Assembly (NCBI GenBank): GCA_965228915.1
Contig: OZ245847.1
Coordinates: 873,173 to 937,172, forward strand
Reading direction: 5' to 3'
Length of the DNA: 64,000 nucleotides
From: Rhodospirillales bacterium
GTDB lineage: Bacteria > Pseudomonadota > Alphaproteobacteria > Rhodospirillales > Casp-alpha2
The notes under the pieces are model-generated. The model searched no databases. It worked only from the letters and a program-made list of their open reading frames with translations, and was not told the origin of the DNA. Of this stretch, positions 56,353 through 60,787 are shown in pieces (position 1 is the stretch's first letter; every line of letters starts with the position of its first letter). The position numbers and the translations under genes are program-made.

Positions 56353-57078
56353 TCAGTCCAGATAAAGCCCGCCGTTGGCCGACAGCGTCGATCCGGTGAT
56401 GAAGCCGGCATCGTCGGCGGCGAGGAACACGACGCAGCGCGCGATCTCTTCCGGCTCGCCCAGTCGCCCGACCGGCACCTGTGGGAGGATGTTGTTCTTG
56501 AGCACCTCTTCAGGGACGGCCAGCACCATTTCGGTGGCGATGTAGCCGGGCGCGATGGCGTTGACGGTAATCCCCTTCGATGCGGTCTCGAGCGCCAGCG
56601 CCTTGGTGAAACCGAGTTCGCCCGCTTTTGCGGCGGCGTAGTTGGTCTGGCCGAACTGACCCTTCTGACCGTTCACCGACGAGATGTTGATGATGCGGCC
56701 GAAGCCCCGTTCGCGCATGCCGTCGATGACGTTCCGGCACATGTTGAACAGACCGTTGAGGTTGGTGCCGATCACCGCGCCCCACTGATCCTTGTCCATT
56801 TTATGAAGCGGGCGGTCGCGGGTGATGCCCGCGTTGTTGACCAGGACCTCGATCGGGCCGATGTCGCTTTCGATGCTTTTGATCGCCGCCTGACAGGCGT
56901 CGAAGTCGCCGACGTCGAATTTGTAAACGGCGACGCCGGTTTCTTCCTTGAACGCATTCGCCGCGTCGTCGTTGCCGGCATAGCTCGCGACGACGTTGTA
57001 ACCGGCATCCTTCATGGCAAGCGAGATGGCCTTACCGATACCGCGCGTGCCGCCCGTAACCAGTGCTACTCTGGACAT
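56353..57078 (-). CDS. phaB: Acetoacetyl-CoA reductase
   Basis: VTGGTRGIG, NNAGITRD, SSVNGQKGQFGQTNYAAAK and PGYIATEMV motifs. Confidence 0.96.
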   Translation of the reverse strand: MSRVALVTGGTRGIGKAISLAMKDAGYNVVASYAGNDDAANAFKEETGVAVYKFDVGDFDACQAAIKSIESDIGPIEVLVNNAGITRDRPLHKMDKDQWGAVIGTNLNGLFNMCRNVIDGMRERGFGRIINISSVNGQKGQFGQTNYAAAKAGELGFTKALALETASKGITVNAIAPGYIATEMVLAVPEEVLKNNILPQVPVGRLGEPEEIARCVVFLAADDAGFITGSTLSANGGLYLD

Positions 57079-57169: not shown

Positions 57170-58345
57170 TTAGTCGCGTTCGACGCACATGGCGATGCCC
57201 ATGCCGCCGCCGATGCAGAGCGTCGCCAGACCCTTTTTCGAGTCGCGCTTCTGCATTTCGTGCAGCAAGGTCACCAGCACCCGCGCCCCCGATGCGCCGA
57301 TCGGGTGGCCGAGCGCGATGGCGCCGCCGTTGACGTTCACTTTTTCGATGTCCCAGCCCATGTCCTTGTTGACGGCGCAGGCCTGGGCGGCGAAGGCTTC
57401 GTTGGCTTCGATCAGGTCTAGGTCGTCAACGGTCCAGCCGGCCTTTTCGAGGGCCATGCGGCTGGCCGGGATCGGGCCCGTCCCCATGATCGCCGGATCG
57501 ACGCCCGCGGTCGCCCACGACTTGATGCGGGCCAGGACCGGCGCGCCGCGCTTTTCGGCGTTGTCCGCGCTCATCAGCACCACGGCGGCGGCGCCGTCGT
57601 TGATGCCCGACGCATTGCCGGCGGTCACGGTGCCTTCTTTATCGAAAGCGGGACGCAGCTTGGCGAGGCTCTCCACCGTCGTGCCGTGCTTCGGGTGCTC
57701 GTCGGTGTCGACCACGGTTTCACCCTTGCGGGAGGTGATGGTGACGGGGACGATCTCGTCCTTGAACTTGCCTTCCTTCTGCGCGGCTTCGGCTTTTTGC
57801 TGCGACGCGGCGGCAAAGGCGTCCTGTTCGTCGCGGGTGAGCTGCCACTTCTGGGCCACGTTCTCGGCGGTGTTGCCCATGTGGTAGCCGGCGAAGGCGT
57901 CCATCAGGCCGTCGCGCAGCATGGTGTCGAGCAGTTCGCCCGAGCCCATCTTCACGCCGTTGCGGAGATGCATGACGTGCGGCGCCTGGCTCATGCTTTC
58001 ATGGCCGCCAGCGACGACGATGTCGCTGTCGCCCATCTTGATGGCCTGATAGCCGAGCGCGACCGTGCGCAGGCCCGAACCGCAAAGCTGGTTGATGCCG
58101 TAGGCGGTCTTTTCCTGCGGGATGCCGGCGCCCATGGCGGCCTGGCGGGCCGGGTTCTGACCGCCGCCGGCGGCCAGGATCTGCCCCATGATCACTTCGG
58201 AAACGTCGTCCGGGCTGACGCCGGCGCGGTTCAGCGCCTCCTTGATGGCGATTTCGCCGAGCGAAGAGGCGGCGAGCGAGCTGAGCCCGCCCAGGAACGC
58301 GCCAACCGGGGTACGGGCGGCGCCGGTAATTACAACTTCAGTCAT
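57170..58345 (-). CDS. phaA: Acetyl-CoA acetyltransferase (biosynthetic thiolase)
   Basis: [31 protein letters not shown] and LCIGGG motifs; followed by phaB. Confidence 0.96.
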
Positions 58346-58477
58346 GGGTCTCTCCCTTTGTCATGCTTCCAGAACAGCCGGTCTTAGGGACCGGGTAACC
58401 TTGCGGCCGTTCGGGCCGCTTAACCGTAATTTTGGTGGGGTCATACGCGAAATCAGCGTCGCCCGCAACAGCTATTT

Positions 58478-58508
58478 TGCACTGCAACATATTTATTGCA
58501 CTGCAGCA
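58478..58508. promoter_or_regulatory. Two PhaR-type boxes upstream of phaA
   Basis: Direct repeats TGCACTGCAACA (58478-58489) and TGCACTGCAGCA (58497-58508) match the TGC-N-GCA type PhaR consensus as I recall it. Confidence 0.65.
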
Positions 58509-59749
58509 ATCCATGTACTCAGCGGCGCGTACAGCGTCGCCTGGGCGCGCGAGCCCGCGACCATGCCGATATGCCCCGCGTTCGCCTTGATGAGCGTGAC
58601 ATCTGGCAGCAGTTCTGCCAAGGGGGCAGCCGACGCCGGCGGCACGATCGTGTCGTGATCGGGGATCACGACGAGCGCCGGGATCTCGAGACGTCCCGGA
58701 TCGAGGGGCGTTCCCCCGCTCTGCCATGTGCCCTTCATCGGCGCGTTGTTCACATACCAATCCTCCAGACACTCGACCGCGACCGGTCCCGCGAGCGGTA
58801 CGCCGTCGTTGAGCCAGTCTTCGAGCAGAATGAAGGATCGCGCTTCCTTTCCTTCCGGTTTCATCGCCGCGAAGCGGCGGAACTTTCTGATCACGTTCCC
58901 CGGATCGCGGCTCGAGAACATCGCCTGGATCACGTCAACCGGCAGGTTGCCGACGGTCGCGATCAACTGCTTCAAACCCGGCAGCATCGCCGTCAGCATC
59001 GCCGTCGCCGATACCGGCATGGCGTGGAAATCCCAGGGCGTCGCCAGCAGCGCCATGGCGCGGATTTTTTCCGGCGCCCGGTGCGCCAGCGCCAACGCCA
59101 GGTTGCCGCCCATGCAATAGCCCGCTATCACCGGGTTCTCGCCCGTGGTCTCGATCACGTGGTCGCGGATCCGCTCCAGCCGGTCGACATAATGGTCGAT
59201 GGTGAAGCGCATTTCTTCCGCGCCCGGCGTGTCCCAATCCACCAGATATGTGTCGTGGCCCGCGCCTGCAAGATACCGCACAAGGCTGTGATCGTTGTCG
59301 AGGTCGAGGATATGCGCCCGGTTGACCAGCGACGGGATCAGGATCACCGGCCGTCCCGACGCTTCGGCGCGCAACACCCGGGTCGTCCCCTCCCACCAGG
59401 TTTCCGGGAGCGCCGGCAACGCGATCGGTCTTGCGGCTTCGGCAAAGCGGTTGACGCCCTCGGCGAAGGCGCTGACCCGCGCGCCGATTTCCTTATTCAG
59501 GGCATCGGCGAAAGCGTCGGCGTCAACCTTTTCGAGGTTTTCCCGGAGCGATCTTGCCCGCGGGGCCAGAGAGTCCTTCCAGACGAGCGAGCCGTCTTTC
59601 AAGCTCGGCAACGCGCAAAGCGAGCTCGTGAACATCAGGTTCTGGATCGCCAGATGCAGGGCCAGCGGCCGGGGTGCCGTCGGCGTTTCCGTCATCGCCC
59701 CGAACATCTTCGCCATCGCCTGCATCGGTGCCGTCCCGTTCGTTTCCAT
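58493..59749 (-). CDS. PhaC-like alpha/beta hydrolase (class III-type PHA synthase family)
   Basis: LIPSLVNRAHILDL, VDW, GYCMGG (catalytic Cys box), TPWDFH, DTIVP (Asp) and GHIG (His). The start is uncertain: in-frame ATGs lie at 59749, 59725, 59716, 59707 and 59695. Confidence 0.82.
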   Translation of the reverse strand: METNGTAPMQAMAKMFGAMTETPTAPRPLALHLAIQNLMFTSSLCALPSLKDGSLVWKDSLAPRARSLRENLEKVDADAFADALNKEIGARVSAFAEGVNRFAEAARPIALPALPETWWEGTTRVLRAEASGRPVILIPSLVNRAHILDLDNDHSLVRYLAGAGHDTYLVDWDTPGAEEMRFTIDHYVDRLERIRDHVIETTGENPVIAGYCMGGNLALALAHRAPEKIRAMALLATPWDFHAMPVSATAMLTAMLPGLKQLIATVGNLPVDVIQAMFSSRDPGNVIRKFRRFAAMKPEGKEARSFILLEDWLNDGVPLAGPVAVECLEDWYVNNAPMKGTWQSGGTPLDPGRLEIPALVVIPDHDTIVPPASAAPLAELLPDVTLIKANAGHIGMVAGSRAQATLYAPLSTWIAAVQ

Positions 59750-59975
59750 CCGCCGCCCCCGTCTTCGCGCCCGCCGCGTCGGTGGCGGCGTGCTGCATCA
59801 TCGCCGCCACGTTGGCCGCGCCCGCGTTCATCAGTTCCATCGTCTGCGCCATGGTGCGGGCCAGATTTTCGTCGTTGGTGAACGCCTTGATCTGCGTCTC
59901 CCACAGGTCGACGTACTCCTTCGCCAGCCGTTCGAGATCGGCCTCGCCACCTTCGGATTTCTTGTCGTCGCTCAT
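59523..59975 (-). CDS. Small hypothetical protein with C-terminal coiled coil; overlaps the PhaC-like gene in another frame
   Basis: 150 aa from MSDDKK. Amphipathic N-terminal helix (LERLAKEYVDLWETQ), acidic linker and heptad ELALRVAELERRLARLE. Confidence 0.7.
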   Translation of the reverse strand: MSDDKKSEGGEADLERLAKEYVDLWETQIKAFTNDENLARTMAQTMELMNAGAANVAAMMQHAATDAAGAKTGAADGNERDGTDAGDGEDVRGDDGNADGTPAAGPASGDPEPDVHELALRVAELERRLARLEGLSGPAGKIAPGKPRKG

Positions 59976-60116
59976 GGTCCCGGCGTTCCGATCCTCAATG
60001 TCGGCGGGCAGTATATCGCGGCCCCGTCGGCGGGCAAACAACCCGCACCGGGCGCGGCCTATTTTGCACCCCTAAAAACGTTATGCTGCACCTGCCGAAT
60101 CCGTGACCGATTTTTC

Positions 60117-60130
60117 GTTGCAGTGCAACA
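60117..60130. promoter_or_regulatory. PhaR-type box upstream of phaR
   Basis: GTTGCA-G-TGCAAC(A) palindrome, equal to TGTTGCACTGCAAC on the minus strand, with the same core as the phaA boxes. A related TGCTGCACCTGC lies about 30 bp upstream. Confidence 0.65.
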
Positions 60131-60172: not shown

Positions 60173-60787
60173 ATGGCGAAAAAGCCGCAAGAAACCGATA
60201 CTTCCGCCGGCGAAAAGAAACCGATCACGATCAAGAAATACGCAAACCGGCGCCTCTACAATACCGAGACCTCGAGCTACGTGACGCTCGACAACCTCGC
60301 GCAGATGGTGAAGGACGACAAGGAGTTCTCGGTGTTCGACGCCAAGACCGGCGAGGACATCACGCGTCAGGTGCTGACGCACATCATCGTCGAGGAAGAG
60401 TCCAAGGGGACTAACCTGCTGCCGATCAGCTTTCTGCGCCATCTCATCAGCTTCTACGGCGACAGTCTTCAAGCCGTCGTGCCGAACTATCTGGAACACT
60501 CCATGAGCTCGTTCGCGCGCAATCAGGAACAGATGCGCAGCTACCTCAACGACGCGTTCGGCGGCTTGAGCCCGTTCGGCCCGATGGAAGAGATCTCCAA
60601 GAAGAACATGGCGATGTTCGAAAACGCCATGAAGATGTTCACGCCCTTCTACGGCCAGGAAGGCGCCAACAACGGTACCGGCAAACCGGCCCCGGATGCG
60701 AAAGCCGAAGGCGGCGGCGACATCGACGATCTGCGTCAGCAGATGCTGGAGATGCAGAAGAAGCTCGACCGGCTTTCCGGCAAGTAA
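60173..60787 (+). CDS. phaR: PHA synthesis repressor
   Basis: IKKYANRRLYNT.TSSYVTL, DAKTGEDITR.VL and LPISFLRHLISFYGD motifs. Confidence 0.95.
   Translation: MAKKPQETDTSAGEKKPITIKKYANRRLYNTETSSYVTLDNLAQMVKDDKEFSVFDAKTGEDITRQVLTHIIVEEESKGTNLLPISFLRHLISFYGDSLQAVVPNYLEHSMSSFARNQEQMRSYLNDAFGGLSPFGPMEEISKKNMAMFENAMKMFTPFYGQEGANNGTGKPAPDAKAEGGGDIDDLRQQMLEMQKKLDRLSGK

Follow-up and report, generated by a model that had tools for sequence, protein, structure and literature searches.

A conserved same-strand overlap between a short PhaC-type polyhydroxyalkanoate synthase gene and an unannotated small open reading frame in Alphaproteobacteria

Introduction

When an open reading frame (ORF) runs far into the next gene, are two proteins really encoded in the shared DNA, and what could the smaller one do? 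The question is raised by a locus of a Rhodospirillales bacterium (NCBI GenBank assembly GCA_965228915.1, contig OZ245847.1, forward-strand positions 873,173 to 937,172; this whole stretch of 64,000 nucleotides is referred to as the window, and positions are counted from its first letter), in which a small ORF overlaps the gene of a short PhaC-type polyhydroxyalkanoate (PHA) synthase. The small ORF occupies positions 59975..59523 of the minus strand, begins with ATG, codes for 150 amino acids and ends with a TGA stop (59525-59523); its putative product is an accessory protein without a name. The synthase gene lies on the same strand, in the +1 frame relative to the small ORF, and extends from one of several ATGs at 59749-59695 to 58493, which gives a protein of 400-418 amino acids. 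At its minimum the dual-coding segment spans 173 nt (59523..59695, minus strand), and it reaches 227 nt if the synthase starts at 59749. One frame of the shared DNA reads ...APRPLALHLAIQNLMFTSSLCALPSLKDGSLVWK... and the other ...DVHELALRVAELERRLARLEGLSGPAGKIAPGKPRKG*, where the asterisk is the stop. We consider it very probable that this is a genuine and ancient same-strand overlapping gene pair, carried on one mRNA and coding for a putative accessory protein and a short PhaC.

The small ORF reads MSDDKK...LAKEYVDLWETQIKAF...AANVAAMMQ, continues with a Gly/Asp/Ala-rich stretch and then reads ...EPDVHELALRVAELERRLARLEGLSGPAGKIAPGKPRKG. Four parts of the protein can be distinguished, all encoded on the minus strand: (i) an N-terminal helical hairpin (residues 9-72; 59760..59951) with the motif PDLxxLARRYLDLWQxQL, in which A18 and W25 are invariant; (ii) a disordered linker rich in G, A, D, E and P (residues 73-114; 59634..59759), whose length and sequence differ among loci; (iii) a short coiled coil, or leucine zipper, VHELALRVAELERRLARLEGL (59571..59633), which shares its DNA with synthase residues ~39-60; and (iv) a basic K/R-rich C-terminal tail, SGPAGKIAPGKPRKG (59526..59570), predicted to be disordered. 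Read in the +1 frame, the linker DNA contains the start codons of the synthase and, in its last part, the conserved N-terminal synthase motif PRPLxLHL.

Conservation of the overlap

Relatives of the synthase were gathered in a first set of 80 loci, drawn from Rhodospirillales metagenome-assembled genomes and from Azospirillum, Terasakiella, Ferrovibrio, Stellaceae, Kiloniellales and Magnetovibrio. All 80 have the small ORF ahead of the synthase, with both on one strand and the synthase at +1. A profile of the small protein matched the directly upstream, same-strand ORF running into the synthase in 79 of them, and in the eightieth (L027) a divergent copy was recognised by eye. A second set held 31 further loci from a class-wide sample, 20 of them chosen for weak scores and different families (the 32nd fetched locus was the window's own and was left out), and the overlap with the synthase at +1 recurred in every one. 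Throughout the 111 further loci in which both proteins were matched, the pair, the strand and the frame offset are identical.

The PRPLxLHL-type motif is present in 80/80 loci of the first set. The stop of the small ORF lies 116-218 nt beyond this motif in 78 loci, with 152-158 nt as the usual spacing, and 59-248 nt beyond it in the 31 further loci. Within a sample of 401 Alphaproteobacteria genomes the synthase was found in 179, the small ORF in 157 and both in 149, the small ORF being present in 118 of 308 genera. The pair is thereby conserved in no fewer than 118 genera of a single class, and its overlap goes far beyond chance. The dual-frame overlap of 173-227 nt that an initial annotation of this locus had described was confirmed, with the same phase in both sets.

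Selection on both reading frames

The two frames leave their marks on different parts of the shared DNA. Over the PRPL stretch (PRPLALHL in the window, 59651..59674, minus strand) the constraint is carried by the synthase frame: across ~80 loci the first and second synthase codon positions are fixed and the third is free (third-position entropy, H3, ~1.2), and P-R-P-L-x-L-H-L is nearly invariant in 80 loci at a place where the small protein has only its linker. Further on, in codons 13-32 past the motif, several third positions of the synthase are invariant (H 0.00-0.17) despite a varying synthase residue, and in the small frame conserved Leu, Glu and Arg codons begin at these very positions. 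Such a combination of an invariant third position with a varying residue occurs in 4 of 50 overlap codons versus 0 of 343 elsewhere. The eight 20-codon windows with the lowest third-position entropy all fall in the overlap (0.93-1.00, versus 1.44 +/- 0.10 and a minimum of 1.18 elsewhere).

In a recoding test, each synthase was synonymously recoded with its own codon usage and the other frame was scored with a coiled-coil profile. The native median was 34.5 bits versus a mean of 4.7 bits after recoding, and the native small-frame score was out of reach of all 100 recodings in 74 of 79 loci. The K+R fraction of the tail (last 15 residues) was 0.37 in native sequences versus 0.22 in the recoded ones, with the native value among the top 5% of recodings in 37/77 loci; the tail keeps its composition and not its sequence.

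A comparison of 13 genomes within a genus gave a concordant picture. No other DNA of the locus is as well conserved as the overlap, which has a mean pairwise identity of 0.865 versus 0.742 for the catalytic core; the DNA of the coil reaches 0.92 and that of small-protein residues 9-62 (59790-59951) 0.80. Third positions of the synthase are 0.90 identical in the coil versus 0.575 in the core. Constraint is divided along the segment: the synthase motif lies over a tolerant linker, and the zipper lies over a variable, low-confidence N-terminal segment of the synthase. With both frames open, both conserved at the protein level and an excess of constraint at synonymous sites, these comparisons point to a functional dual-coding pair. 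The earlier impression that both frames look protein-like is thus borne out by conservation and by the double constraint seen in entropy, recoding and within-genus identity.

Could the shared DNA code for the synthase only, with the upstream ORF being a leader or uORF (upstream ORF), or a peptide that matters only in its N-terminal part, and the conservation reflecting an RNA element or a site of translational control? Such an arrangement would agree with the chance of about half that a second frame stays open at the same G+C, with small ORFs that end before the coil in some lineages and with the usual omission of the ORF by gene callers. We regard it as very unlikely, as the constraint recurs every three bases in step with the small frame, whose first and second codon positions are fixed and whose third is free, and replacements stay heptad-like (L/I/V, E/D, R/K) across loci that are only 25-35% identical. 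The tail remains basic without conservation of its sequence, the stop stands at a near-constant place in most loci, and the hairpin, which lies outside the overlap, is a well-conserved protein domain itself. Moreover, an Rfam search of the locus matched no family.

Translation start of the synthase

In the window, the synthase frame offers five ATGs within its first 19 codons (59749, 59725, 59716, 59707 and 59695), all of which arise from an Asp GAT codon and the following G in the small-frame linker. Of the 80 loci, 79 have a start codon within the 30 codons that precede the PRPL motif, and 70 have ATG there, while by our own estimate ~0.2 would be expected for ATG at the same composition. 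Among the 35 loci with a single candidate start, 22 carry a GGAG-type match resembling a Shine-Dalgarno sequence. In several loci an in-frame stop is found only 9-15 codons upstream of the motif. The DNA of the start window before the motif is not conserved (identity 0.39-0.45), and there is therefore no conserved slippery site. Because of the start codons, the Shine-Dalgarno-like matches and the close in-frame stops, independent internal initiation is favoured over a +1 frameshift.

A programmed +1 frameshift would have ribosomes slip in the linker to make a fusion of hairpin and synthase and, where they do not slip, make the coiled-coil protein; the synthase start would be absent or additional. 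The frame relation of the two genes has the right sign for it, and the hairpin occupies the place of the N-terminal domain of class I synthases. Two loci, L154 (G551, 28% G+C) and L172 (G571, 42% G+C), have no separate small ORF and instead an in-frame N-terminal extension of the synthase of 75-90 residues, which carries DQKIFDEWKNYLTTLLQNPNL or AEELLNFWQRHCDPYAPDA; by eye this xLxxW(Q/K)xxL..(D/N)P pattern resembles the hairpin motif LARRYLDLWQxQL..DP. With the hairpin model these two extensions reach no more than 2.6 and -1.1 bits, and a natural hairpin-synthase fusion was not retained beyond a by-eye lead. Stops so close to the motif leave scarcely any room for a shift site, and together with the nearly universal start codon and the variable start window they make programmed frameshifting very unlikely.

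That the overlap is an artefact, be it a frameshift of assembly or sequencing, a pseudogene or a synthase that in truth starts downstream of 59523 at a non-ATG codon, would fit the general rule that many annotated long overlaps are mispredictions, but it is a negligible prospect here, as 111 other loci, taken from independent assemblies that include complete genomes, show the pair in an identical phase and arrangement, as the PRPLxLHL stretch upstream of 59523 is conserved at the protein level and has the usual pattern of codon positions, and as the window has no start codon just downstream of the small ORF stop.

Identity of the synthase

The synthase ORF (418 amino acids from the first ATG) runs ...TAPRPLALHLAIQNLMFTSSLCALPSLKDGSLVWKDSL... 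into an alpha/beta-hydrolase domain. Its catalytic triad, already proposed in the initial annotation, consists of Cys212 in GYCMGG (59114-59116), Asp366 (58652-58654) and His393 in AGHIGM (58571-58573), and is invariant in 28 relatives. A search with the protein returned 5,990 matches at E<=0.001, with numerous relatives of 405-435 amino acids. When solved structures were searched by sequence, the top five matches were PHA synthases (E 8e-18 to 3e-15) and the sixth was a lipase (E 4e-6). The AlphaFold2 model has a predicted local distance difference test (pLDDT) score of 83.6, with residues 1-60 at low confidence (38-56); the top 15 Foldseek matches are PhaC structures, the best including 9knj, 5xav, 5t6o and 5hz2, and the model is closest to PhaC of Aeromonas caviae, Chromobacterium and Cupriavidus. 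Judged by its catalytic domain and triad, the protein is a member of the PHA synthase (PhaC) superfamily.

Its assignment to a class is another matter. The best NCBIfam model is that of class III PhaC, TIGR01836, with 164.9 bits against a cut-off of 365.3 and only model positions 61-348 covered. As no PF09712 subunit stands beside the synthase either, the class III-type PhaC of the initial annotation could not be upheld. The class I model, TIGR01838, gave 97.9 bits against a cut-off of 622.65, and of PhaC_N only the last 31 model positions were matched, below cut-off; class I membership was rejected as well. The synthase belongs instead with the short PhaC encoded in the alphaproteobacterial phaR<>phaC-phaA-phaB locus, the type of Rhodospirillum rubrum PhaC1 and Azospirillum PhbC2, on the basis of a divergent phaR, phaA-phaB downstream, a length of ~410-420 amino acids and the PRPLxLHL motif. 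R. rubrum PhaC1 itself was placed in this family through synteny in the literature only.

An N-terminal (A/G)PRPLxLHL...SSxAALPxLxxGS is common to relatives down to 47% identity, and since they share its (A/G)PRPLxLHL motif the synthase starts upstream of the small ORF stop. In Azospirillum brasilense Sp7, where the gene order is the one seen here, the orthologue is 43% identical over 98% of the synthase, and tblastn with the synthase as query found the Azospirillum loci. For one orthologue the start chosen by PGAP (Prokaryotic Genome Annotation Pipeline) is MFTSSL, which lies inside the conserved N-terminus and shortens the protein.

The small protein

The AlphaFold2 model of the small protein has two hairpin helices (residues 9-33 and 36-72; pLDDT 85-93 over residues 11-50), a linker with pLDDT 47-59 and a zipper helix (115-135) with pLDDT ~95. 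Zipper residues R121, E126, R128, L132 and E133 are at least 90% conserved. The consensus of 40 diverse members reads xPDLxxLARRYLDLWQxQL...DP..., followed by a variable A/G/P-rich linker, ELARRLAxLExRLAxLE and a K/R-rich end. Predicted homologues number 269 at E<=1e-5, none with a functional name; those that are labelled at all are called "hypothetical protein", except for two that JGI names "uncharacterized small protein (DUF1192 family)". Against Pfam, NCBIfam and PDB sequences only generic coiled coils were matched (DUF7310, Trimer_CC, GCN4 adaptors and YadA). A tblastn search with the small protein against plasmids gave no match, probably owing to low-complexity filtering.

The initial annotation had seen a PhaE-like protein here and had noted that no canonical phaE is present. 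The second statement held, with no match to PF09712 (PhaE) in the whole genome and one in only 1 of 40 relatives. The first did not hold as homology: the small protein matches neither the PF09712 nor the TIGR01834 model, and hhalign against 22-31 PhaE sequences gave a probability of 1.5% with default and 16% with permissive settings, aligning essentially the terminal helix or coiled coil. "PhaE-like" can at most describe an analogy of position and C-terminal helix. Other candidate families fared no better. The models of class IV PhaR (TIGR02132) and of phasins gave no NCBIfam match to the small protein at E<=0.1, and the phasin families PF09361 and PF05597 were not among the 25 Pfam families matched by most aligned members at E<=10.

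Searches with PF09712 also met short ORFs of 133-202 amino acids in other Alphaproteobacteria (G366:C6:928442-928684, G375:C1:1677109-1677345 and G336:C184:143304-143486), in which only the C-terminal 60-90 positions of the family were matched, at 21-31 bits. These ORFs have no relation to the small-protein family and could encode phasins or mini-PhaE-like proteins.

Proposed role of the gene pair

In an overlapping gene pair of this kind, one mRNA would probably start just upstream of 59975, probably under the control of PhaR, and carry both genes. The first would yield a protein with a helical hairpin, a disordered acidic and glycine-rich linker, a three-heptad coiled coil and a basic tail; the second would be translated in the +1 frame from its own start codon inside the linker-coding part of the first. 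From its linkage and architecture, the small protein most probably serves synthases of the R. rubrum PhaC1 / Azospirillum PhbC2 type as a dedicated accessory factor. Its hairpin may contact the synthase or the nascent granule, its coil may oligomerise the protein, and its basic tail may bind DNA or an acidic surface; by analogy, it could resemble PhaM, PhaF or PhaE/PhaR(IV) in role. The low-confidence model of synthase residues 1-60 fits a segment that would fold only on a partner or on the granule. The overlap would tie the two genes to one transcript and make the pair evolutionarily inseparable. Since the ribosome-binding site of the synthase would be crossed by ribosomes that translate the small ORF, the overlap may also link the rates at which the two are translated.

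A wider proposal, to be taken as tentative and rather doubtful, is that a short PhaC with an overprinted coiled-coil protein of 10-20 kDa forms an unrecognised two-component type of PHA synthase, present in ~40% of the sampled Alphaproteobacteria genomes. Its partner would control priming, the oligomeric state or the placement of granule or nucleoid, and selection would have kept the overlap as a means of setting the protein ratio through ribosome traffic across the synthase start.

Several points weigh against the reading of a coding pair with an accessory role. The case for dual coding is drawn from the comparison of sequences, and an open second frame by itself is weak evidence; under recoding the small frame is left open by chance with a probability of ~0.5 per locus in this DNA of 64% G+C. 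The partner role has linkage and architecture as its only basis, and no family, structure or profile match in Pfam, NCBIfam, PDB or hhalign comparisons assigns the small protein a function. R. rubrum PhaC1, which belongs to the family by synteny, is reportedly active alone in vitro. Overexpression of phaC1 alone raises PHA in R. rubrum (PMC4026134). Because of these two reports an obligate subunit of the PhaE type is doubtful.

Lineage variants add to these points. In six loci (L147, L148, L149, L151, L168 and L175) the small ORF keeps the hairpin and ends near or before the PRPL motif, without coil or basic tail, so that the overlap can evidently be lost. In three others (L157, L162 and L164) the synthase has no PRPL motif and no small ORF was recognised. 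As lineages without the coil or the small ORF keep the synthase, the coil, and perhaps the whole small protein, appears dispensable in some backgrounds. On balance, a tie between the small protein and the short PhaC-type synthase, as the initial annotation had envisaged, is plausible. A granule-targeting function, which it had also suggested, is a putative one.

Comparison with known systems

The same gene order has been described for R. rubrum phaC1 (Rru_A0275), whose product shares only 14-18% identity with the class I-like PhaC2 and PhaC3 (PMC4026134, PMC12983893), and in Azospirillum baldaniorum PhbC2 has 419 amino acids, with phaR upstream and phbA and phbB downstream, according to an in silico analysis only (PMC11338129). 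The locus of the window resembles them in gene order and orientation, in having a synthase of about the length of PhbC2 with the Cys-Asp-His triad, and in the very low identity to the class I paralogues of its own genome. In contrast, the papers on PhaC1 and PhbC2 mention no upstream overlapping gene (PMC12983893, PMC4026134, PMC11338129), the locus tags of R. rubrum phaC1 and phaR being consecutive (PMC12983893, PMC4026134). A literature search found no description of the small ORF. On the A. brasilense Sp7 plasmid ABSP7_p3 (L081, NZ_CP012917.1), RefSeq leaves a gap of 500 bp between phaR and an alpha/beta hydrolase (2453-2952), and the small ORF lies unannotated inside it. What appears to be new is the conserved dual-coding pair and a putative accessory protein of the PHA synthase, the short PhaC locus of R. 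rubrum and Azospirillum having been known already.

The class III PhaC-PhaE systems of Allochromatium vinosum and Synechocystis share with this pair a catalytic subunit of ~40 kDa (the class III model being the best-scoring one here) and a second protein encoded immediately upstream in the same operon, PhaE also ending in a helix and a short charged tail. They differ in the size of the second protein, 15 kDa here versus ~40 kDa for PhaE, and the synthase stays at 165 bits versus a cut-off of 365. To our knowledge, phaE and phaC do not share coding DNA in such a way. PhaM of Ralstonia eutropha and PhaF of Pseudomonas putida associate with granules and combine an oligomerising helix with a DNA-binding tail rich in lysine; PhaM in addition activates and binds PhaC1. 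As far as their general architecture goes, the small protein is like them in its helical region, its coiled coil or leucine zipper and its basic C-terminal tail. Its tail, however, has only ~15 residues and no PAKKA or AAKP repeats, and neither phaM nor phaF is known to overlap a synthase gene.

Bacteria seldom have long and deeply conserved same-strand overlaps of two real protein genes, and such overlaps are generally written off as mispredictions. In a survey of 2008, overlaps of at least 7 nt were a minority (29,015 of 71,210 pairs), most overlaps measured 1-4 nt, and selection against long ones was inferred (PMC2542354). The present overlap is like those surveyed in being terminal, same-strand and out-of-phase, with one disordered or low-complexity frame in each stretch, and differs from them in its 170-230 nt, its spread over at least 118 genera and its measurable double constraint. 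With its clean and divided constraint, the pair lends itself well to the study of DNA shared by two proteins in nature.

For the study of polyhydroxybutyrate (PHB), an unannotated and unnamed protein would be added to the core locus phaR-phaC-phaA-phaB of model and production organisms (Azospirillum and probably R. rubrum). Earlier work may unknowingly have removed, truncated or omitted this protein in deleting or overexpressing phaC1 or in producing the recombinant enzymes, and if so, this could bear on reports of little in vivo contribution by the operon-encoded synthase. The annotation gap is systematic: the ORF is present in 157/401 genomes, and only a few hundred predicted proteins were found in a set of 5.8 billion. 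Gene callers seem to drop the small ORF because of the overlap.

Gene neighbourhood and other observations

The position between phaR and phaAB given in the initial annotation proved correct. The divergent phaR (60173..60787, plus strand) encodes a protein with PF07879 and PF05233 that scores 150 bits with TIGR01848, above cut-off. Downstream of the synthase, on the minus strand, follow phaA (57170..58345), for an acetyl-CoA acetyltransferase with Thiolase_N and Thiolase_C (E 1e-105), and phaB (56353..57078), for an acetoacetyl-CoA reductase with adh_short_C2 (E 4e-61). Asp is written far more often as GAC than as GAT in these two genes (GAC:GAT 21:2 in phaA and 11:3 in phaB).

The synthase is not the only one of this genome. 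Two class I-type PhaC genes lie elsewhere, at 3605691-3606206 on the plus strand and 395076-395594 on the minus strand (L082 and L083; open frames of 629 and 604 amino acids), so that the "second" PHA synthase system announced by the initial annotation is a third synthase. This three-synthase layout is the one described for R. rubrum.

The C-terminus of PhaR, a low-complexity linker followed by a terminal D.L..RL.E.Q.RLDEL, has a weak match (16-26 bits) in the linker and coil of the small protein; this was seen in the PhaR ORFs of L116, L118-L121, L130, L131 and L136 and in the phaR of the window. The two coils might pair, or they might merely be analogous oligomerisation ends.

Upstream of the small ORF, a candidate sigma-70-like promoter (TTGCCC-16-TATACT; 60010..60037, minus strand) was recognised as a match to the consensus only, with one site versus 0.3 expected; the end of its -10 hexamer lies 35 nt upstream of the small ORF ATG. 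Finally, the palindrome TTGCA(C/G)TGCAA has 4 matches in the window versus 0.49 expected, with two copies in the spacer between the synthase stop and phaA (58477-58487 and 58496-58506) and one in the spacer between phaR and the small ORF (60118-60128). These palindromes are candidate PhaR operators, in which case phaA would gain a regulated entry point of its own.

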